This document shows positions 1,076 to 57,700 of a DNA stretch of 64,000 bases, in pieces. A program made the position numbers and the translations under genes. This DNA comes from Leptogorgia sarmentosa. Taxonomy: Eukaryota. The stretch covers positions 12,276,001 to 12,340,000 of the forward strand of contig OZ210885.1 in NCBI GenBank assembly GCA_964658305.1, in the 5' to 3' direction. The notes under the pieces were generated by a model. It made no database searches, was not told the origin of the DNA, and worked only from the letters and a program-made list of their open reading frames with translations. Each line of letters opens with the position of its first letter. The stretch's first letter is position 1.

Positions 1076-1081
1076 GTGTCT

Positions 1082-1125
<44 letters not shown>

Positions 1126-1149
1126 TTGGTTCGAGTCCAACCAGGGACG
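1076..1149 (+). tRNA. tRNA-Asn (GTT)
   Basis: 74-nt cloverleaf; anticodon arm TTCGG CT GTT AA CCGAA; T arm GTTGG/CCAAC; one G-G mismatch in the acceptor stem. Confidence 0.9.
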
Positions 1150-1272
1150 TGTTTGGTGTGATGTTATTCAGACGTCCTGACGGTAAATGTAACCGAAATT
1201 TTTGCGCGAGGTTTTCTAAGGATTTATGGAAGCTTTCAAAAAAAGAGAACGTCTTACTTGGTTAATTAACTA

Positions 1273-1344
1273 GGGCTTGCACCGGAATCGAACCCGTGAC
1301 CTCTCGCATCCTAAGCGAGAATCATACCACTAGACCAGCAAGCC
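1273..1344 (-). tRNA. tRNA-Pro (AGG)
   Basis: Reverse complement GGCTTGCTGGTCTAGTGGTATGATTCTCGCTTAGGATGCGAGAGGTCACGGGTTCGATTCCGGTGCAAGCCC; one T-stem mismatch. Confidence 0.88.
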
Positions 1345-1655
1345 GTTGTTGATACCAAATTGTTTTCTAATGTATTTTGTAGTGACAAAGAAAAATTTGG
1401 TATTAATGTTTCCAAAACATTTTCCAATCGATCTTCGCGGAAGAAATCAGATTTTGGTGAAAAAATAGTATCAATTATTGCTGTATTTTTACGACCCAGA
1501 GGGTTAAGATGGATATACTACCATTCGTGTTAAATATATCCTCCAATGCTTGAAAACGATTAGTCCTGCTGTTAATTACTGCAATATTTTGTTGGATTTT
1601 ACTGACAGATTGAAGATATTTTCATTTCGAAGTGCAAGCCAATATTACTGCCAAC

Positions 1656-1737
1656 GTAGTCGTGGCCGAGCGGTTAAGGCGGCAGACTTGAAATCTGTTG
1701 GGAAATTCCCGCGCAGGTTCAAATCCTGCCGACTACG
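1656..1737 (+). tRNA. tRNA-Ser (TGA)
   Basis: 82 nt, GTAGTCG/CGACTAC acceptor stem, long variable arm, anticodon arm GCAGA CT TGA AA TCTGT. Confidence 0.93.
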
Positions 1738-1874
1738 GAAAAGCGATTTTTTCTAGGATGTAGCTATTTGGCAAAATTAATGGCGTAGTAGCGCTTTTAA
1801 AATGGTTTGATTTCAGAGAACGAGTTTGAAAATGTGAACACAAGCTGATTCAAATTGAAATTTTCAGAAAAAAA

Positions 1875-1946
1875 CTACCACGCCAGGATTCGAACCCGGG
1901 CCATGGCGGTGAAAACGCCATAACCGAACTATTAGACCACATGGGA
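1875..1946 (-). tRNA. tRNA-Glu (TTC), degenerate, likely pseudogene
   Basis: Inverted copy of 2954-3025 with altered D arm (TAATAGTTCGGTT) and acceptor 3' strand; anticodon TTC. Confidence 0.8.
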
Positions 1947-2010
1947 GTGATATTTCCCATCAGCCCGCTTTGAGGAATTTGAAAGGTTTCCAGTTTATAG
2001 GTGTGATAAG

Positions 2011-2082
2011 AAGGAACGGGCGTGTTTGAACCACCGACCTCTCGATCTGCAGTCGAATGCCCTACCACTGAGCTACACTCCC
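2011..2082 (-). tRNA. tRNA-Cys (GCA), degenerate
   Basis: Reverse complement GGGAGTGTAGCTCAGTGGTAGGGCATTCGACTGCAGATCGAGAGGTCGGTGGTTCAAACACGCCCGTTCCTT; mismatches in the T and acceptor stems. Confidence 0.8.
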
Positions 2083-2387
2083 TGTGTAGTCTACTAGGTT
2101 AATTACGTACATATACTTTCAAACGCAGCAATAATCAATTCACGGACCTGTGTTCTTTCAATTTTACATTCAAATACAAAATCCTTCTTGGCATGTTTCA
2201 TAACCTTAATGCAATAAAAAACGCGACTTCTTTCCTTCGATTTTTATAGATGGAAAACTTGGGCATTGAATCTGTCACTTTGAACACTCAGCCGCCACCA
2301 CCGAGAACACAACTTCCTGTCATCGAGTTTTTCCCCAAAACAATTCATGTTTATCTTCGAGGCCAAAATTTTAAAGACTTTGCATAA

Positions 2388-2475
2388 CGTAGTCGGCAGG
2401 ATTTGAACCTGCGCGGGAAACTCCCAACAGATTTCTAGTCTGTCGCCTTAACCGCTCCCGCTCGGCCACGACTAC
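2388..2475 (-). tRNA. tRNA-Ser (AGA) with 6-nt D-loop duplication
   Basis: Body nearly identical to 1656-1737, anticodon AGA, GAGCGG duplicated (88 nt instead of 82). Confidence 0.88.
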
Positions 2476-2799
2476 GATGCTGCAACCAACCGGCTTCACG
2501 TTGTTCACTAATGAACATTCACATCCATCTTCAACTGACCTACACACTCTCAGCGTTACACTCTGAACAATAGAAACTTTCTATTTTGAGGTCTTACTCA
2601 AAACTCACTTGTGCAAGTTAATTCCAAATTCAACTCGAAACCATTCTATTAGCAATACTTATTTTTTTCCCAAACGTAGTGAAATGGTGGAAAGATATGA
2701 AACTTGAACTTAAATATATAGAATGCTACCTACCTGTGAAGGAACATGCCTGAATTTGCCTGAAGCCACATTTTACCTCCAGACAAGGGCGTCAACTTT

Positions 2800-2870
2800 G
2801 CGTTGTTGATTCAGTGGTAGAATTCTCGCCTGCCACCCTTGAGACCGGGGCTTGATTCACAGCAAACGCA
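2800..2870 (+). pseudogene. tRNA-Gly (GCC) pseudogene
   Basis: TCAGTGGTAGAATTCTCGCCTGCCAC matches Gly-GCC, but the anticodon 3' stem and B box (GGCTTGATTC) are broken. Confidence 0.8.
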
Positions 2871-2953
2871 GATGTTTTCATTTTGTTGCATTTCAATTGC
2901 AACTCGAGAAAAAATGTGGGTTTGTAACACAGACATGATCTCGAAATTGTAAC

Positions 2954-3025
2954 TCCCATGTGGTCTAGTGGTTAGGATCTGGCGTTTTCACCGCCATGGC
3001 CCGGGTTCGATTCCCGGCGTGCGAA
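2954..3025 (+). tRNA. tRNA-Glu (TTC)
   Basis: TCCCATGTGGTCTAGTGGTTAGGATCTGGCGTTTTCACCGCCATGGCCCGGGTTCGATTCCCGGCGTGCGAA followed by a T7 Pol III terminator. Confidence 0.9.
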
Positions 3026-30700: not shown

Positions 30701-33700
30701 AATCGATGCGTTTTTGGTCATTACACGGAGCCAAATTGAGCGTGTTAGTATGGACACAAGGTTTTACTGTGGACTTCACACCTAAGTTTACACTTTCATC
30801 CTAAGTTTAACACCTTCGGCACATCTTAAAGGAAATTCATTTTAAAAAATCGTTTTAAGTTTTCAATCGTTTTAAAAATCAATGTCACAGTGTAAAAATT
30901 GTCACAATCATGTCCTTGACACGAAAATATAAAAAATGGGACGTCTGGAAATCTAGGTTAAAGTTTGTGCAAATGAAGTTGAAAGAAATGGATTACGAAC
31001 TTCAATATTACGTAAGCATGCACGCGAGTTGAGAAGAAAAGAAAAAAACATACGTCTTGAACAAAATTTCTTCACTTGTTCTGATAGGATTCTAATGGAT
31101 TAATTTTCTGTGACCATACGAACAGATCTAATCTAAATGCGATTCTCGGTAACAATGATATGAACACACCGTGTATTTTTATTTTTTTAAATACTTTTCA
31201 TAGTGCACGGAACAAAGCGAGACAGCACTTTGTCCGACCGATTCCAATACCGCTACAAGCAAAACACTATTAATTTGGTTCGGTTCTTCCAGATAAGGTT
31301 GAACTATGAGACATTCTTCCAAATTTTAACTCCAAATTTCCAAAATGAAGCTTGGGACGAAGTTGATATGCAATATTTCTACAAGCGTGTCATAATGTGT
31401 ATGTGCATGTACCATTTAACATCATGAAATTTCAATTGCAGCTCAACCTACAACAAGTGACACGCCCAAAAATAACATTTGAAAATCTCGTTTGGAAAAT
31501 GACATACATACCTTTTTGCCAGAAGCAATTATAATATCATCGGAGAAGGGCACGAATTCTAACGCGGAAATGGAATCAGAACAAATGTTGTCATGTGACC
31601 ATATTAACGTCGGCAAGTTTTCTTCAACATTCCAAAGCTTCACAGACCCACCAATAGACCCCGATGCAAAGCGACGTGAACGATCATGACCTCCTAGCTC
31701 GCCTTTAACTTGAGAAATGGCATCCTCGTGTGCTGGGAATTTCAACTGCGATTTATTGTTAAGATGAAACCATAACAGTTCTCCGTCATCACAACCAAGC
31801 AATGCATAGCTTGAACCAAGAGCAGTAATGCAGGTGACTTTAACATCTGGTTGACCCAATTTCATACTGGCCTCGATATCATTAAAAGTTCTTAGTTCGA
31901 TTCTGTTTACCTCGTTAACAATAACAAATCGGACATCATCACTTAATACGCAGACAAAACGTATGGCGACTCCAGATTCGGTCTTTGCGAATTGAACTAT
32001 TTTAGAACACTCTATGTCGACCAGCGACAATGTTCCTGAACTGCTTCCAGACAGAGCAAATTTCCCATTTGATGTGATGTCAATTGCTGTAACTATCGAG
32101 TCGTCAGGGTGACCTGCATGAAGGAAGTAAAATGTTTAATTAAAGTCATTTGAAGTATTCAAGTATATGCGACGCTTAAGCGGTGTAGCCTGCCAATCAT
32201 TCAACAATATCATTTAGACAACAAATAATCTTTATAGGTGCAGGAATAGAATTTTATTCAAATCCAGGTAGGAAAAGACATCGCTGATAACGGAAACGCA
32301 AAAATCAGCTGTCGTTCACTGTTGTGAATAAAAGACTAGTATACTCGAATAAAGGCCGTTTTCCATTACAGTCGTTTTGCCCGCGCGGGCGGAGCGAACG
32401 ATTTTAACTTCGTCAAAAATCAGTCGCGCGGACACGACGAATAGCAGAGATTCATGCTGCCATATTTGCAGGTCAATTGTTACCCGGAGTGTTTTGCATT
32501 CATTTTGCATTCCGTCAAACCCATAACTGACGGGCGAAATAGACCATTGATTTGCAACTGGATCCTGCATTCTTATAAGTATATAGGATGACCCAGAAAA
32601 CACAATATAAGCGGCAACGATAAGTAACGTAGTCAGCATAGTTAGTGATTATGCACTAAAAACGACATATTTCATGTAAATTTCGTGAGCTTCAAGCGTA
32701 TAGAAGAAAACAGGAATTGTCAGTGTTCGATTCGACTATTATTGCGCATTGGATTGGATTGACTAATTTTCGAAATCTCGTAGTTTTGGTATTCTTTCGC
32801 TACATGCATCACGACCTAAATAGCGGATACAGGTTTGTAGATACTCGTGACGAAACCGTTTTAATTGTATTCTCCGTAATCCTTTAACGAACATAATTTT
32901 ATATATATGTATACATAATCAGAACGGAAAATAGCCTGTAAAGCTAGCCAAGACAATTTCAGAGCTAACACGTAAATCGAATTCAATATTTGACTCATTC
33001 GCGAGTGAATGCAGTGGTTTTTCGGGAAAAATATATGCTCATTTAAAACGGATATTTCACACATATAAATTATTGTGTGTATGATTATAGTAAAAAATCC
33101 TGTAGTCGCATCAAAGACTTAAAAGTATTTAGAATTTTAAAATAGTCCTTGATTTACCCACCTGCATTATGGTCGACCCAACTCTTACTTGAAAGTTTCC
33201 GGTGGAGAAACACATTTTTCTGAAGCGAGCTAAACAAAAGATCTTTGCCGTCGGGTGATATTACAGGTGCGACCCTCGGCCGCTGACGTACAGTCGATAC
33301 TTGCAAAGAGTCGAGATTGATTTCACAAATATGCATATCAGGGCTGCATGTGTAAATCATGTTGCGATCGCATGCTATTTCCACTGTATGGGACGCGGGT
33401 AAAATGACTTCTTTCAAAGACGCATCAGGCTTTTGCCAGTCCCAGATGAACACATGGTTATCTTTGCATCCAATTACAACTTGCAACCCATCAGAACTAA
33501 AGCGAACAATTTCAGGTGTGCCATCGCTATCAATTCCATTGATCACACTGCCATCAGACAAATTCCACACCTTAAAAAATAAAGGGAAAATTAATATTCT
33601 GTATGAAGCTAAAAACTTGTGACTATATAATGATTTATCAAAACTAATTGTGAATATAATAACTAACAAGCAGAATAGGTTTCGTTACTTATATTATGCG

Positions 33701-42700: not shown

Positions 42701-45700
42701 TCATTTTCTTCGATCGTATACGAACAACTCCTTGTGTGTTGGCACGGACTCATATGACGTTGTGCGACAGCCACATTGATTCGTATCGATCAGCCAGCTA
42801 ATTATTTTCAATACACGCAGCGTGTTGTGCACGTGTTATGGTTTTATAATGATCTTTGGCAACTTACTCAACTGAGTGTACTTCCATATTTAGTGAGCCA
42901 TGCAATCACTTTGAATTACCCAAAGCATGCTTTACACGTGCTATACGAGGTTCTGCGTCATGCGTAGACGCACATAATGTGACGATTTTACATTTGCTGT
43001 AATTACAGCGTTTACATTTTGTGGCCTTGTGGTAGTCAAACATTGTTAACCACTTCACTGATTGACGGCCCCACTCTAAGCGTTCGCCATATGTTGTGTA
43101 GAAATTTTAATGCCCGAATGAATGCTGAGTTTGAAATTTTTGCAAAAATTGAAATTCCGGAGGGGCTTTCCGGCATTGTGTACTCTAACTTGTGGGCTTC
43201 TTCACCCATAGCTTACTTTTCTATTCATTAGAGTAACTGCAAACCATGATGATCAACGATTTATAGCTACAATTGCATAATTTTTGTAAGGATATCAGTC
43301 AATTGTGGAGTTTGTACATGGGAAGATTTTGGAAAGCACCCCCCATGCCCCCTCCCCCATCAAGTTTACACTATGAATGAATGACTGATGTGAATTTTCC
43401 CCACTCATCAAAATAATGCCAAATTTCTTCGAAACTTTGCACTAAATAGTGAGGCAACTTAAACAAATCATAGAAGAATGAGACAAATTAAAGTTCATTA
43501 TTTGAATTACCTAGGAGTTGAGGACAGATAGAATCTGGGTTTTCGTTGATGACATCGGCAGAGAACATTAACGAGGATTTGAGAAGTTGGATTTCCTCCG
43601 ATTCTGTGTCCACAAAACGAAAATCTGATATTGCAGAGAATACGCTGACGTGTTTCGCTTTTTGTTTGAGCCAGTGTAGATCAAACAGCAACTGGAGTAG
43701 TTCACCATGTCGTCCCGAAGAATAAATGTGATAGGGTAGGTACTTGAAATAATAGTCTTTTTGGCAGGTAGTTGAATTATCATTCCAGTCACCATCCACG
43801 CACAGGCCACAAAGTGTCTTTACGAACTTATCCTGAACATCATATAGTGTACCCATGTCTTGAAGTTTTGTCTGGGCAAAATCCAAAAGCAAGTCATGGA
43901 CACGATAGCTTTTCTTTCCGTGGAGTTCAGGCCCTGAAATTGATCGAAATGTTAGAAAATTTGTACTAGAGGCGGACAATTTTTGAAATCTCAAAATCGC
44001 CGTTGAGTAGTATAGAAGGAGTTGTGCTATCAGGTTTTCGTAAATACGAAATGGCTTAGTCACAATAAGAATAATTATTGGCTATAGCGAGCCAAGAATA
44101 ATGCAATATCTGTAAAAAGACACACAGACTTAAGGTAGTCTTGGTAAAACTCCTAATTCCTAAAAAGCAAACAATATTTTTTAATTTACACGATTCGCCT
44201 TATTATTACAAAACATCAAAAAATCCACTTGATCCACTTTGCAACCTGTATTACTGGTTCACTGACTGTTGTAAATTTTCGTTACTAATGACAATACTGC
44301 AAAGTGAACTTGGCACTGAAGATAAAAATTTTTCGGAGGATGTGCAGATCAAAACCGTTAAAAGATAAAACTGTACCTTTTAAGATCAGCGACTTTCTCT
44401 CGAGCACAGCAAGTATATCTTTGTGTTTCTGAGGTTTGCGCGAAGTGTTTCCATTCTGGTTCTGTATCGAACACCACAGCAGCTCGAGTACATCTGACGG
44501 TATATCTGTATCCTCTGGAAATATAGCCAAATAAAGAAACATCTCGCGTACACTTTCGTCTAGGCGTTGGTAGCTCACATCAATGACTGCTAAGAGGTTA
44601 TCATAAGGATAATCGACTTTGGGAAATAATGAACGAATTCTCTCCAGGTCAGCATTTTTAAGATCATCTAAAACATCCTCCCAGTCTTGTTCCGCACGAG
44701 TGTCCGTTAAATTTGAACCCACCAGTGACAGAGCCAGGGGTAAACCTCGACACTGCTCTAACAGGTCTGCAATAATTCGCCGTAAGTTTGGCGTTAACTG
44801 TTCGTCTGGACTTATCCCAGCGCTCTGATACAACAGCCCTCGGGATTTATCTTGTGGCATAATAACAAGTTCGTACTTGGTAATTCCCGAACCGCAGAGA
44901 ACAGTAGCATCTCTAGTTGTTATTAGTAATTGGCATTTGCCAGATAAGCAATTGAATACAGCAGCGTCGTCCACCTTCCAAACATCATCAACAACAACCA
45001 AACAATCTTTATCCATCTAAAAATGAGTTGAAAACTAGCTCAGAAACCGTATGTTAACTACATTCAAAGGTCGGAAAATTTACAACTCTTACTGGCCAAG
45101 GCCTTCAAAGGCTCGCTTGCATTTTTTTAGTGGCATTTTCTGGCCTTTCTGATATATGAGGCACATGTTCATAGGTGGATTTATGACGAGTGTTCTGATT
45201 TTATTAATTCTGACTTCCGCAACTGGTTTAGTCTTTCACCTCAATCAAAGCGGAAATAATAAAACTCGCACTAGAAATAGCTGCAAAAATTGCAGTGTAA
45301 AAGAGTCCCAACTGCCAATGCATGATATGAATGAAGTTTTTTAAAGAACTGAGAAAGTAGAGGTAATATTTATCATTTATAGACCCGGAGGCAATATGAA
45401 GCAAATATTTCGACCATCAGTCAAGCCACATCAGTCGTATGCAAGTATATATTGTTTTCGTTTCACAAGAATGTACAAGTTAAGAATTGTGCTTTGTTTA
45501 CAAATACTTACACGAGCTGGCTGTAAAACGCACGAGAAATTTTCAATACTGAGCCGAGTTAAAATGTTAAATTTATTTTAAAAATTAAAGACAAGTAATA
45601 AAGCTTACAGCCTGTACATGTGGTCGTGTGAAAGAAAAGACTTGGAAGAATTGCCACTATTCTAGCTATAACGTCCATCTAACAACATCAGTGTTGTGGC

Positions 45701-48700
45701 TATTTCCACAACAATAGCATGACGATGTTAATTAATGAATGCATATGCATGCAAATCAAGTGCATGATATCAATTAACGTGTGTGATATTTTAAGTCATA
45801 AGCAAGTAAGTCATAAGCAAGTAAGTCATAAGCAAGTAATCATCTCGAAGTAAGTGAGTTATTCAAGTATATATTAACTCAAGTAAGCAGTCGTCAACAA
45901 GTTATTTAAGCATTCCTGCACAAATTGGTAAGAGACTGTATTTGTATGTATTATGTAGATTCCTGTATATATTTTCATGCTTGTACAAATTCTGTTATAT
46001 AATAGTAAATATTCGCCTCTTCTAGGAGTTTTACCGGCGAATCTACCGTGTTAAAACGTGTGCAGAAATAGAAGTGTTTATCAGATATCGTTTTCAATTT
46101 TGTACGAGCTGTACAACTGTAAAACTCCAATTTTCTTCGGGGTTTGAAGCATATTCAGTAGGACGAAGTTAATGATGTATAACTAAGTACAATGGCAGAA
46201 AGGATTAGTAACGCTTCAGGAGATGACATTTCGCGGCTGGACAATTCCCGTCGGGGATATTTGTCTTCGCTCACCAGAATATTCAATCAAATTGATCCAC
46301 TATTAAACGATTATTCGCACGTTGTACTTGTGAAAGAACTCCAGTCTAAATTACGAACAGCTTGGGCAAATTATCAGTCCTGTTGCTCGCGATATACTGA
46401 CGAAAATGTAACGGCATATCAAGTAACACAGAATCAACTTGCTGAACAATGCCATAAAAAACAAGAGTATGATGAAAAGATCGATAGTTATTTAAAAGAC
46501 TCTATTGTGTATTATAGTGACCAAGGCGTAGAAGGATTTGCGCAGTCTTTAAACAAAACACCTACAGGATCCGTAAGGTCAGCAAGTACCAGAGGTTCAA
46601 GAATTAGCAATTTTAGTGACGCTAGTCAAAGGTTAAGGGAAACCAGAGACGCTGCTGCCAAGGCAGCGATTGTTCATAAGCATGTTGAAAGTAAGAAAAG
46701 GCGCGAAGTTGAGCTCGAATTAAAGAGAATGGAATTAGAAATCAAACAGAGGGAGTTTGAATTACAACAGCGGTATGAATTAGCCCAGATTGAAATTGCT
46801 GACGAAGTTCAAAGGGCAAAAGATGATGCAGAGCTAGCAAATTTAGAAGCTGAATTGGCAAGGCAAGAGTTTGTTGAGTTGGCAAAGAGAACTGAAGATT
46901 TGGATCTGGATGAGATACCTTCTTCACCGTATATAAGGGAAGTTACATTACAAGCTCAACGCCAAGTTATTGGTAGTCAACGACGCGGTTTGAATCTATC
47001 ATCCGCTTTCAGGGGCGAGCCGAAGGTCCTAAGACAACCCACTCACCCAATGCACAATGTATCACGGACAACCCAACCAACTCAACCCCCCACCAGTTCA
47101 ACTGCAGAGTTTAGTAGTCCTACGCTCCTAAATACCCTTGTTACCACCATAGAAAAGATTGGGTTTTCACATGACTTCCCAACAATCGAAATACAAAAGT
47201 TCAACGGGTCCCCTCATCATTTTCCTGTTTTCCGGCATCGTTTTGATCAAATGATAAACTCTAAACCCATTGAGGAATCGGTGAAAATGTCTCGCTTACT
47301 CCAGCTTCTTGAAGGTCCACCATTAGATGCCGTAAGAAGATACGAGGCTGTCGATGGAGGTCTGACCAAGGCTCTTAAGCTTCTTGAGGAGCGTTATGGC
47401 CAACCTTGTCAAATTGTTCGTGCATGTGTGGATACTCTCACCAAAGGCGCAAGCATAGTTTCAAACGACAACGAGGCGTTGCAGAAGTTCGCAGACGAGG
47501 CACAAGTCATGTACGACACATTGAAATCGATGGACTGCCTTGCTGAAATGAACGTTGATAATCTGGAGAGAATGATTTCGCGTTTACCTAAATGGATGCA
47601 GTCAAAGTTTACCGAACACCTCAGAAAGATAGAACATGGTGGCCGAGTTATGCCCACATTCAAAGATGTAGTCAATTTCTTAAAGGAACGCGCGAGTGTA
47701 GCCAATCACCCTTTCTTTAGTAATTCGTTGATGGGGAATAAGGAAAGGGTTCCTAACAGTGGCGGTAGACAACGTATAAAGGGACAAACTATTCTTAATA
47801 CCAATGCCAATGAAGTTACACCATGTCCAATGGGCGCTAAACCACATCCATTGTACCGATGTCATGTATTTAAATCCAAAACGGCGGAAGAGCGAGGAGA
47901 ATTCGTGAAGAAGAGTGGAATTTGTTTCAATTGTATTAACTCGACAAGTCATACGTCACGTTTATGCAAGTCTAAATTTCGATGTCAGGTTCCAGATTGC
48001 GGCAAGACGCATCATACATTGCTACACAGATTAACTCCTCCTCCCATTAAAGCTATTCGAACAGCCGAAATTGGTACAAGTACACACGAGTCCCCACCTG
48101 CGTCTGCATCGTTGCCTCCTGCTGACCAAAAACTTCAGCACCATATGGATAGTTCAAAGGAAGTTCTATTACAAGTAATACCCATAAAGATTATTAGCCC
48201 TGATGGTAAAATGGTTACTACCTATGGGCTAATTGATTCAGGATCTGACGTTACATTAATTGACCAATCGCTCGTCGAGCAACTACAGTTTAAGGGACAA
48301 CCTGACCGGCTCCACTTTTCTACGATTGATTCCAAGGATATTCAAGAGGCAGGTGTCAAAGTTGAATTTAAGATGGGTGCAGTGGACAACAATGATGATG
48401 ATGATATGATCGATGTGCAAAATGCGTGGTCCATTAAAGATCTTAATATTCCGCTGAAACATCAAGTTATTCATCGAAATGTCGGTCAATGGCCCCATTT
48501 GCAGCATGTACCATTCCCTGAAGTTCAGCGTAACAAAATATCTGTTCTTATTGGCACGGATGTTCAAGAAGCGTTCATCCCACTGGAAGTCAGAAAGGGT
48601 ATGCGAAGTGAGCCCTTGGCCATAAGATCGTGTCTGGGTTGGAGCATTCTCGGTAACTGCAGCAAGGCTGCAAACAATTCCAGTAGACAGAGTTTCCTGA

Positions 48701-51700: not shown

Positions 51701-54700
51701 TAACTCCAAGTCACTTCCTCCTGCAACGACAAAATGTCGCTTTACCACCTGGTCACTTCACTAATCACGATCTCAACTGTCGAAAACAATGGCGACGTGC
51801 CCAGTTTTTGGTGAATTGTTATTGGAAAAGATGGATAAAGGAGTACCTCCCGCTTCTACAGTCCAGACTGAAATGGAGACGTGAGAAGAGAAATCTCAGA
51901 AAAAACGACTTAGTATTGGTAGCTGATAAAGGTACTCCGCGAGGCAAATGGTCATTAGCTCGTGTTACAAGAGTCTTCCCGGGACGTGATGGTCGTGTTC
52001 GCACCGTTGAAGTTAAGACAAAGGACACTACGTTTACTCGACCGATTACAACATTGTGTCTCAGTGGCGGAAATTCAGTTCAGGAGGTGGGGGGGCAAAG
52101 CTTCGCGAATTTCCGACAAATTTGTTTCGATTGTTCATACTTTTTTCTTTTTTGATAAACATGGACAAGCGCAGAAATGGCAAAAATGAATTTACAAACA
52201 CAACATATCAGACAATTAGACAAATAGGTTCTTTCTTCTGCTCACTAATCCAAAGAGGTCAACGGCACGGTCAACGTTTAGCGACCTACTACGTTCAGTT
52301 GATAATACTGCCAAGTCTGACGTACGTTTCTGATTCGTGGTTGACCTTTGACAAGTCTTTATTAATTTCAATTTCGAAAACGATCTTTCTGGCCCCGCTG
52401 TCGTCACTGGGATTGTAAGAAATATCTGGTATAGTCGATAAAGGTTCGGGAAAACCTTGTATAGATTAGACGAAAACAGAAATTTAAAAATATGCTTGGG
52501 ACTGGTGCAATCACTTTCTTCTGTTTCCCATTTATACACAGTTCGCGTCTTTTTCAAAACTTGAACACGCTTCTTAGTCGCTACTTTAATACCTTTGCGC
52601 TCTTTAAATCTCGTCTGGAATAGTGTGTATACTCCGCGATGGCATCATTAGTGCTCACATCTGCCGATCCTGCAGACCCATACTCTTCCAATAAAACATT
52701 GAGTGAGCTCTCGTTGTCTTCTTTACTTCTATTGAGAAGATTGTCAGGAGAAAGACATGTAAAAGCAGATAAAATGCGCCGACTTTGGTCGAAACGTTCG
52801 TTAAGTTGGGTAATTATTACATCGATTGCTGTAAAATAAACATCCCGCTTAAACTGTTCTTTAGCATTTTCTGCAACTTCATCACTTGCCAGTTCGTCAA
52901 AGAACCTCTTCTTCTTTCTCGGCCTTTTCTCTGTGAATTCATCTGAAACACCACATTCGATGGCAACTTTTGATGCTTCGTCAATAAATTTCTCGAATTC
53001 TTGCTCTTTTCTTAATTCGTTTAAATTCGTTATGCAGGAATCTACCAACTGGAAACATTCTGCTAGATCTACGTTGTCGTTTTGTAATGTTTTGCTCAAA
53101 ATGTTTGTCAACTGTAAAACTTTATCAAAAATAGCAAGCATCGCAATGAATTCAAACTTTTCGCAGGATAGAAGTAATCCATTCGCCTTTGAGACAACAG
53201 TGGTATCCGTCTCATTTGTGATCATGTCTTCCAGCATGCGAATAATAGCAGGATATGTTGCTATGGTATCTTCTATGACTTTGTGATGTGTTTCCCACCT
53301 CGTCTCTGCATGACGCTTGAGAGACCGTGGTTTTAAATTCAGCTCTTTTTGGATGTCAAAAAAAGTGTTGTGACGCTTAGGACTTCCCTCTATAAACACG
53401 TACAACTCTCCCAGTGTGGCAAAAAACACTTTCATTGGAATGCTGCTCTGACACGCTTGCACGAGTACCAAATTTAGGGCATGGCAGGCACAGTGGACAC
53501 TCTTGACAATGGGATTGACCTCCAATATTCTGGTTTTCAATCCTTGGTATTTTCCGGTCATGTTGGCTGCTCCATCTGTACCTAATCCTCGCAGATTTTT
53601 TATTTCCAGTTCAAATTCTTTGAGTGTTATGTTGACTGTGCCGAACAGTATCTCCCCTGTTGTAGACGCGATGTTCTTAAATGTCAGAAAAGTTTCAAAA
53701 ATTTCTCCCCAGAGAGCATAACGGAACACGAAACTGAGCTGCTCATCTTTTGACATGTCAGAAGTTTCATCCAGCATCATCGAAAAGATACCAGCTTCTT
53801 TAATTTCATTGATTATATCATCTCTCGTAATCTGAGCAAGGGTGCCGATTATTTCATTCTGTATGGCAGGCGATGTGTACCGACAATACTTTTCCTTCTC
53901 TTTGAGATGCAAAGCCAAATTTCTGTCGAAAACTGAAATAAGCTGGATCAGTTCCAAATGGTTCCCCTTGTTATCCGAGTCTTCACTTTCATCGTGACCA
54001 CGAAATGCCAAATTTTGCCGAGCTAAGAAGGTTGTTATGTTGCACAACGTTGAAATTACCTTTCTGTTCTTTTCAACTTGTTCTTTTCTTTTCTTTTCGG
54101 CCAGCTTGGCACTTTCACTCAGAGAATGCTCGATGTCATTTCCTGATATAAAACACGAGTACTGGAATGCGGCGGTCTTGTGAATATCAGTGTTTTCATG
54201 GTGTCTGATCTTCTCTAATCCTTTCTTCCAGTTGTTGATACCAATCTTCGTCCAGTTAACTTCACTAAAGTGAGCTCCATCAGGAACAAACAGGGTACAC
54301 CAAAAGCAGAACATACGGTCTGATCTTGGAGAGTAAACTAACCAATCTCTTTTAAGGCTAATGTTTGACTTGTGCAAGTTACCATCAGCATCGCTCTTGC
54401 CAGAGACTTAAAATACCAGGCTTGATGAAAAGACCGCTTTGTCTCCTCTGTAATTGGAAAACCGTTTTCCAGATCATCTTCATTAGGCTGGCAAGGACCT
54501 AATCGGCACAATTCTTTTCTCAAGTCAATGTTTGAATGTATATCTTCAAGTTGAAAAAGAGCAAGATCGTTGGGAAACTTTTTCCTCACATCAATAATAT
54601 GGATAGCCTTTTCCCCAGCATCCGAAGATGTACTTGACCAATCGCTGTCTTCATCTTCAGTGCATTCAACTTTGGACGTGGGACATCTGAATGATATTGA

Positions 54701-57700
54701 ATTATTTAATTTTTTACCAAACTGAACATAATTAAAGACCGAACTCCTACATATATTGATTCCAATATTTCACAAACTATAAAACAAAAAAAACAAATAA
54801 AACAATACCTGCATTGAAACCCATCTTTGTCTATCAACTCAACTTGTGGCGTATCTTTGTCCACCATTTCTACATTACCTAAATGTATGTTACTTCTCTC
54901 GTGGTGATCAAGAGGGGTGTCAACCTCGCTAATGTCTACTTCGCCTTCACTGTGGAAATCCTCATTCTCGTCTTCTATTTCACTGCTCCCCAAACGAGGT
55001 GTCGTGGTTTGTTCATTAGCAGTCTCAGGCACAATTTTTGGCTGAGAAACCTATGTACAGAATTATCACAATATTGTGTGAAATTGTTACAATATTCAAC
55101 GTTTCACTGTGTTAATTAATTCAACAAATTTCATTGTCCATTTCGAATTTCGAGGGCTCAACATAGGCTTGGCAAGTGATGAGATTCATTAGACAAAACA
55201 AGATTTTACGCAGCTGTCACAGCTGTCATTACACGAAGTCTTAGCGCACTTGAAAATTTGAAAATATACCGCTATTGCACAAATAGAAAATACCATGAAA
55301 AATACCTATTTAAAACCAATTTAAATATTCTTTTATGTACATCTTATTATAAGCCTGCTTAGACTTGTTCAGGTTCAAAAATTATATTCACTTCAATCAC
55401 AGAAAGAGTAATCACAGAAAGAATGCTTATTAAAGTGCACATAAAAGAATATTTAAATTGGTCTCAATTATGTTTTGGTCGATTAGTTAATATCGAAAGC
55501 AGCTTAAATGCATAACGATGCATATTTATTTAGTTATGCAAATCAGTACTCAGTCATCATCACATCGAAAACTTAGATTTTTTTTGTTAAAATGGTCAAA
55601 CATGGTTACCTGAAAAGGATTTGCAAATGCCCCAACAGCTTGATACTTAATTTGTTTTCGCTGCCTAACCAAATTCTTGTGGTGAATATCGTTGTGTTTC
55701 TTTCTGTAGTCGCTGTCAAATACTCTGTGGCAGCACAAGCACTCAATCTTTGTCCTCTTAGCTTTTGACATATTTTGTTATTTCCGTTTCGAGCGGTTCA
55801 GCTCTTTACAAACAAATACTGAAAAGTATTTCCAAAATCGTTTTGTATGTGATGCAATGATTTGAGATTCAGAATTCCTTCGACGCAATGATTTGAGAAT
55901 TCCTGGACAGAGCTCCAAAATTCCTTTATTTTCCACAAAATTCCACAAATTTTGTCATTTACCGGTCTTCAAAAATCGAATAGCGAATAGGGAACATATG
56001 AGAACGACGAGCATATAACTAGAAAATAGCTTAAAGATAATCAGGTCTACGTATGAATTGCCTCACGCTCCAGTAACTCTTTCTACAAATATCTGTATAT
56101 TCAATTACTTTCAAAATTCCGACAGAACCGAAAATTTCCGACAAATTGCCGATTTTACGGAAGGTGGGGGGGCGGTCGCCCCTTCGCCCCACCTGAATTT
56201 CCGCCACTGTTGTGTCTGTTAGAGGAATCAAGTAACGATTAATAGATTCTTTATAAGATAATCCTCAATATATATCTGAACATTATTATTCAGCCGGGGG
56301 AAGATGTTGTGGCTATTTCCACAACAATAGCATGACGATGTTAATTAATGAATGCATATGCATGCAAATCAAGTGCATGATATCAATTCACGTGTGTGAT
56401 ATTTTAAGTCATAAGCAACTAAGTCATAAGCAAGTAATCATCTCGAAGTAAGTGAGTTATTCAAGTATATATTAACTCAAGTAAGCAGTCGTCAACAAGT
56501 TATTTAAGCATTCCTGCACAAATTGGTAAGAGACTGTATTTCTATGTATTATGTAGATTCCTGTATATATTTACAAATTCTGTTATATAATAGTAAATAT
56601 TCGCCTCTTCTAGGAGTTTTACCGGCGAATCTACCGTGTTAAAACGTGTGCAGAAATAGAAGTGTTTATCAGATATCGTTTTCAATTTTGTACGACCTGT
56701 ACAATCAGACTTCTATCTTTAACTTCGCATGAATTTACGTTTACCAACGCTGTACTGGATATTATTTTGCCGTATTACTGCAACTTGGCTACTCGAGCTA
56801 CATCCCATTAAAAATCGTCCCTATACCTTGAAAATAGCCCTATCACAAACATCAAATATAGCACACCATACATACCGTGTATTTTCTTAACCAAGATTCC
56901 GCTGCAACAATATCACTGAACGACACATCTCCACCAAGGACTCTGACGAGGGTGTTAATCAGTTTCAAGCGATCAGGTGTTTGACCAATGTCAAGCCAGA
57001 CAACTTGACGAGATTTTGAGACTTCCCAGGCAACAGCTTGGGCTAACACCGTCTTACCGAGGCCTCCCATTCCACGAATACCAACGTCGCCACCATGACG
57101 TCCAACAACACCCACTTTATTCCCCTGCTTGAGTAACTCCAATATCTCGGTTACTTCTGATGGCCTTTCCACCATGTGAGCAGGTAGATTGCGTAATCCA
57201 TACGGAACTAGAATATCGATTAAAAAATATAGATGATAATTTTGAAATCACTCTGCTGCACGCTTCAAATAATTGTGCATACCAGAATGCATATTTGTAT
57301 AATTTAAACTTTGAATATTAATTTCGTTCAATATTTTACGTCGCTCTGGCATTAAAATCTCTTGCTACAGTTTGCAGTGTATGGTTACTGAAGTGAGTCT
57401 AAACTTTATTTAAACTTTCCCAAGAAAAGCCATTTGTAGTATGCTTTACAATTATTGATGAGAAGTTTGTGGCCGTTCCTATTTGGTCGTTTATGCGTGC
57501 GCGCAGAAGGTGCTAATTGGTACAGTCTTTCCTCACCACCTGTACTGCAGGGTGAGAGAACTTGGAGTACGGTATGATTTTGAAGTGCTGTCCACTGGGT
57601 GCAGTGGTGATATAAAGATATGTAATATCAAACTACCATTCCTAATCATCGAGGTCACTCGTGTGCATATACTATATCGAAATTGCATTCGAAACCATGC

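Follow-up and report, generated by a model that had tools for sequence, protein, structure and literature searches.

A BEL/Pao retrotransposon of Leptogorgia sarmentosa whose predicted primer-binding site complements the splice junction of an LTR intron of the same element

A BEL/Pao retrotransposon in the genome of Leptogorgia sarmentosa was analysed with respect to the initiation of its reverse transcription. The element lies in a stretch of 64,000 nucleotides of contig OZ210885.1, analysed as a whole and called the window here. The analysis indicated that the element probably primes with its own spliced RNA and without any tRNA, the binding site being a 15-base complement of the junction that is formed when an intron in the LTR is removed. 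This reading builds on what is found in the sequences themselves: the intron has splice signals, the site is complementary to the junction and co-varies with it from family to family, and some copies are without exactly the intron.

The features of the element are summarized in Table 1. The TG..CA LTR pair, the target duplication, the PR-RT-RH-IN order, the polyprotein homology and the placement in the tree described below assign it to BEL/Pao (Belpaoviridae). The 18-nt host-tRNA site of that family was not found, and the assignment rests on structure and protein. Pfam called DUF1759, Peptidase_A17, Integrase_H2C2 and DUF5641 in the gag-pol frame; the reverse transcriptase was not called by Pfam, and its YVDD motif was located by a script. 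Motifs taken to be DSGS, YVDD, RNase H-like and integrase were located along the frame. Among named homologs, residues 1-700 matched best those from Montipora, with 47-48% identity, which suggests a cnidarian host. The insertion is young, because the two LTRs differ by only 4 substitutions in 399 aligned bases together with two indels. The 5' part of the LTR contains short tandem repeats (45792-45839), of which the 5' LTR has one extra 15-nt unit compared to the 3' LTR. The retroelement is inserted antisense between two stretches coding for NB-ARC on the reverse strand (44285-45016 and 56852-57247), which cover profile positions 20-76 and 99-247 and look like one APAF1-like host gene; WD40-like frames were seen by eye at 31443-33684.

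Table 1. Features of the retroelement, with positions counted from the first base of the window
Feature	Position	Strand	Basis or remark
Target-site duplication ATCAG, 5 bp	45687..45691 and 56704..56708	n/a	flanks both LTRs
5' LTR, 424 nt, TG..CA ends	45692..46115	+	LTR pair and target duplication
TATA-like box, 60 nt before the donor	45868..45874	+	putative start about 45898
End of LTR exon 1, 5' part of the predicted primer, 6 nt	45922..45927	+	complement to the primer-binding site
GT-AG intron in the LTR, 98 nt, with donor GTAAGA, pyrimidine tract and TAG	45928..46025	+	splice signals; contig of run X12
TATATAA of the original prediction, inside the intron, presumably at the place expected for a branch point	45996..46002	+	
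Start of LTR exon 2, 3' part of the predicted primer, 9 nt	46026..46034	+	predicted cleavage after 46034
Predicted primer-binding site GTAAAACTCCAATTT, 3 nt past the LTR	46119..46133	+	complements the spliced junction in full
Putative pairing segment for 46122-46128, which would mask the primer-binding site in unspliced RNA	46139..46145	+	folding model only
Single gag-pol frame, 1987 aa	46192..52155	+	last ~30 codons from the nested hAT element
Nested hAT-like DNA transposon	52062..56209	-	DUF4371; terminal inverted repeats; 8-bp target duplication; inside the last pol codons
Polypurine tract	56296..56304	+	
3' LTR	56305..56703	+	LTR pair; intron kept at 56526-56613, 10 nt shorter

The original prediction had stated that GTAAAACTCC (46119-46128), which follows three spacer bases, is the exact reverse complement of 46025-46034, and both the positions and the letters were confirmed. 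Dinucleotide shuffling of the LTR produced a 10-nt match starting 0-5 nt past the LTR in 63 of 20000 cases, and a comparable match was present at 115 of 10567 sampled window positions. The prediction was equally right that the 5' LTR is not followed by a tRNA site starting with TGG, which is absent from the first 12 bases, and that TATATAA is present upstream of the match. The ten bases are real but incomplete as a match: five more bases (46129-46133) pair with 45922-45926 across the intron. Joining of 45927 to 46026 gave a perfect 15-nt complement of 46119-46133, made up of 6 nt from exon 1 and 9 nt from exon 2. When the post-LTR 34-mer was shuffled 20000 times, with all 436 GT..AG pairs of the LTR and offsets of 0-9 allowed, this length was reached twice. 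Position 46025 is the G of the acceptor AG and the final base of the intron, while TATATAA sits 30 nt before exon 2, within the intron. The paired stretch has its 3' end (46034) towards the LTR, separated from it by the 3-nt spacer, a polarity that suits priming. A PDB search by sequence brought no useful result.

The stretch between the two blocks has the properties of a U2-type spliceosomal intron, namely GT-AG ends, a consensus donor, a pyrimidine tract and exact removal, the last of these observed in contigs. In one contig of run X12, exactly the predicted 98 nt, bounded by GT and AG, are missing; its depth is 94.5 compared with 283-300 for the contigs that hold the intron. The size of the run and its cover of the intron suggest that X12 is a DNA run. 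If so, intron-less LTR copies exist in the family; they would have to stem from a spliced RNA that was reverse transcribed, or from a deletion of the same precision. A pairwise alignment revealed that the related locus L042 is without exactly the 99 nt which form the intron of L005. In locus L041, exon 2 of the 5' LTR is preceded by an acceptor-like stretch, the donor lying off the contig, and the 3' LTR contains a ready-made junction. L080 appears to be related to L026 but to have no intron. An intron-like stretch was also found in the 3' LTR of L014 and L055, whose primer site is not on the contig. The X12 contigs stop matching at two positions, 45898, which is 30 nt past the TATA-like box upstream of the intron, and 45933, a few bases into the intron; these break points suggest LTR variants within the family.

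The pairing of the junction with the site was studied in 20 folding models with RNA starts at 45880-45920. The duplex energy was -17.5 kcal/mol for 15 bp and -12.1 kcal/mol for 10 bp. The probability of the middle pair of the duplex was 0.55-1.0 in 20 of the 20 spliced models and at most 0.12 in 19 of the 20 unspliced ones, in which the site is predicted to fold with 46139-46145.

According to the proposed mechanism, transcription would begin upstream of the intron, perhaps at about 45898, and the host spliceosome would excise 45928-46025 from the 5' LTR part of the RNA. The fresh junction would then fold back on 46119-46133, and the RNA would be cut after 46034, probably by the RNase H of the element by analogy with Tf1, leaving a 3' OH that faces U5. 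Minus-strand DNA would extend over U5 and the remainder of exon 2 before jumping to the 3' LTR part. The intron in the 3' part would stay mostly unspliced, so that daughters inherit it; where it was spliced, an intron-less daughter with a ready-made junction would result. The persistence of the intron speaks for this last step, as the intron would survive only with a 3' copy that usually escapes splicing. Cap-proximal introns are spliced better.

The junction primer could also act in trans, supplied as a short spliced RNA from the same or another LTR copy, or by the partner genome RNA in the particle. Complementarity cannot separate cis from trans, with a primer in trans it would matter less that one LTR copy has to be spliced and the other left intact, and intron-less LTRs probably occur in the family. 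A primer of this kind is nevertheless unlikely, as the cis pairing is predicted by the models to form readily and no Rfam family matches 45600-46300.

Related loci were collected from metagenome, genome and viral contigs. The metagenome-contig scan gave at least 77 loci (the best 80 of at least 552 matches confirmed) and the genome-contig scan gave 15 loci (L078-L092), while no relative was present among 168 pattern matches in viral contigs. The 15 loci are BEL/Pao loci in bacterial genome records, three of them in a Wolbachia record and several in MAGs, and are most likely host contamination. The LTR-primer region was absent from most of the loci found. Scoring was carried out on 32 rows (31 loci plus the window); 23 of the rows were non-TGG and 9 TGG-type. 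An LTR pair set the LTR ends of 15 rows and a sister locus those of 3, and the ends of the other 14 were placed by eye; for 14 of the 23 non-TGG rows the end was placed after the sequence had been viewed. Two loci that first looked TGG-like (L012 and L013) hold too little LTR to score, and L010, L018 and L054 were left unclassified. For locus L035, which had also looked TGG-like, the site was placed further upstream, where it is self-complementary. Locus L039, at first counted with 11 nt among the split types, was removed from them: the position of its LTR end is uncertain, unbroken matches of 12-14 nt result when other ends are chosen, and it falls outside the clade. In L039:229-640 these 12-14 nt matches lie just past a TATA box and the LTR holds an intron-like stretch, and the locus may be a separate, Tf1-like self-primer that uses its 5' end. 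A leader motif with two short palindromes past the primer site was noticed in one subclade, at approximately L012:400-480, L013:30-100 and L035:5230-5300.

The co-variation across related families, which the original prediction had put forward as a check, was followed in these rows, and the post-LTR site was found to vary with the LTR of the same element. Split complements of 10-16 nt were present in ten families including the window, among the matches listed. The lengths were 15 nt for the window and L005, 14 for L002, 16 for L026, 11 for L068, L006 and L022, 12 for L070/L076, 13 for L008 and 10 for L062, where L002 was scored against the LTR of its sister L003 and has a site that starts with TGG by the letter. 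The mutated twin of L068 (L067) reached 9 nt only. A shuffle test with 1000 shuffles gave p<=0.007 for nine of the ten split families and p=0.063 for L062. The relatives showed matches of 6-9 nt without splicing compared to 10-16 nt with splicing, and the sequences of the split sites differ between families. Unbroken complements of 9-14 nt (p 0-0.053) were found in L042, L045, L041 (3' LTR), L011, L074, L035, L019, L080, L060 and L077. Because these ten loci have an unbroken complement, splicing is not required in every lineage. The nine TGG-type controls gave 4-7 nt at most, and exchange of post-LTR segments between elements gave at least 11 nt in 2 of 500 pairs.

The splice signals of the split families were also analysed. 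The donors were GTA[AG]G in all ten families, when only GT had been demanded, against a background of 22 of 421 GT sites in 11 LTRs. The acceptors of the ten families were YAG, each preceded by a 12-base stretch with 7-12 pyrimidines. When the GT/AG rule was dropped, the best two-block match included the GT..AG placement in 9 of 13 rows; the remaining four were L067, L068, L022 and L039. The spacer between LTR and site was 0-9 nt in the self-complementary rows and 0-7 nt in the TGG rows. Of 20 loci, 16 had a paired stretch ending in AC and three had one ending in AT, and the AC end may be a mark of the cleavage site.

The original prediction had assigned the priming to a Tf1-style start, in which the first 10 nt of a transcript from 46025, driven by TATATAA at 45996, would prime. 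The 10-mer and the TATA box are both present, and a 10-bp duplex was also predicted for RNA started at 46025, with a probability of 0.92-1.0. The RNA data consisted of 5 reads from three raw runs, too few for mapping of the start or the joint, and run X2 yielded no match. One read pair aligned at 46025-46116, from exactly the expected base, with up to 9 unaligned letters per mate. This pair represents one molecule and is equally compatible with transcription from 46025 and with a spliced RNA whose end was clipped, as a spliced or intron-less molecule would align from the same base. A start at 46025 leaves the five exon 1 matches, the canonical splice signals and the exact intron loss unexplained. 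Among 11 LTRs, only that of the window itself has a TATA box 15-45 nt before exon 2, which speaks against a general start at the acceptor. Priming of this type is improbable; 46025 may still be a second start. The proposed partner, an RNA 5' end at 46025 set by the TATA box, gave way to the exon-exon junction that is spanned by the 15-nt match; the wider proposal of tRNA-independent self-priming in a BEL/Pao lineage was supported, as the site tracks the element's own LTR across families.

The duplex could otherwise be a structural or regulatory stem, with a role in translation, packaging or shielding of the poly(A) signal, and priming would then be due to a tRNA fragment or take place at another site. 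Half-tRNA priming is known in copia-type elements, as described in the available portion of PMC6317226, and the tRNA comparison suggested along with the original prediction covered only the seven tRNA genes of the window, for which the best match was 7 nt. The paired site occupies and replaces the TGG position of sister clades, and it changes by family in step with the LTR and not with a conserved tRNA, which leaves a stem of this kind with a quite small probability. The seven tRNA genes are clustered at window positions 1076-3025 on both strands. Chance complementarity is largely refuted and can hardly be the explanation: many GT..AG pairs were tried per LTR and some LTR ends were set by eye, but the shuffle nulls include that freedom, the LTR end in the window follows from the LTR pair together with the target duplication, and an independent contig subsequently showed the cut that had been predicted.

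The relatives were further examined in a pol tree of 47 rows, calculated with LG+G4 in a quick search and rooted at the midpoint with no outgroup from other superfamilies. A branch separated all 22 self-complementary loci from the 13 TGG-type loci with an SH-aLRT support of 100, a quick-tree value that is less reliable with long branches. The same split was obtained in a second tree. The self-complementary side also holds proteins of Montipora, Danio and Acanthopagrus. The 13 TGG-type loci, four of which were classed by eye and unscored, correspond to one label change on the tree. The split and unbroken forms were interleaved and need 6 and 5 changes, which implies that the intron was gained or lost several times. 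That intron loss happens is read from the sequences of L042 and X12. The tree contained no named reference of Sailor/Sinbad, Suzu, Dan or Flow, and the third zinc finger of the element differs from the Suzu spacing given in the accessible text of PMC554778. On balance, we favour the view that a broad aquatic lineage of BEL/Pao dropped tRNA priming and has its primer built by the spliceosome, in which splicing of the 5' intron would license the RNA and the unspliced 3' copy would transmit the intron.

Self-priming has been described for Tf1/Tf2 and the Tf1/sushi group in the parts available of PMC7175516, PMC5341516 and 10.1101/2022.12.06.519325; PMC3601003, PMC5371799 and PMC5443660 bear on self-priming in this group or in the plant lineages named below. 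The window element resembles this group, as far as those parts describe it, in having no tRNA site, in a site that complements its own LTR RNA and, by prediction, in the need of cleavage for a 3' OH. It differs in superfamily, as BEL/Pao domains and no chromodomain match were found and the group consists of Ty3/gypsy chromoviruses. The Tf1 primer is made of the first 11 unbroken RNA bases according to the same parts, whereas the longest match of the window element is split by the intron and likely internal to the transcript. The three-duplex 'pretzel' of Tf1 was not evident in the folds of the window element, which were no dedicated test for it. Self-priming of the plant TAR elements (Houba, Osr-1) of Ty1/copia and of Tcn1 of Ty3/gypsy was predicted from complementarity, as stated in the portion of PMC6317226 at hand. 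The likeness lies in a self-priming that is predicted from the complementary sequences, and the difference in other superfamilies and hosts; no intron that splits the primer is mentioned in that portion of PMC6317226.

The ICTV 2021 profile of Belpaoviridae lists an 18-nt primer site to which host tRNA-Arg or tRNA-Gly would bind (PMC8742986). The window element shares with the family (Semotivirus) the LTRs, the single gag-pol frame, PR-RT-RH-IN, a polypurine tract of ~10 nt and the BEL/Pao Pfam domains; it differs in that the window element and 21 related loci have a self-complementary site in place of the tRNA site. The words PBS, primer and priming are absent from the main texts of three BEL/Pao surveys (PMC3118150, PMC6238403, PMC8556966). 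The accessible text of the Sinbad paper (PMC554778) contains no PBS, tRNA or priming, and the excerpts of PMC8220671 and PMC8672886 held nothing further on the question. The literature search, which covered mostly titles and the start of abstracts and stood apart from supplements, Repbase, GyDB and subscription papers, returned no BEL/Pao self-priming and no primer built by splicing.

If true, the spliced-junction primer would add to the routes by which reverse transcription is initiated in the order to which the retroviruses belong, in a family for which the ICTV profile has tRNA priming only. Retrotransposition would then be tied to host splicing, and the lasting of an intron in an element that is copied through RNA would be accounted for. 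The junction rule provides a sequence criterion for primer sites which annotation based on tRNA leaves unassigned.
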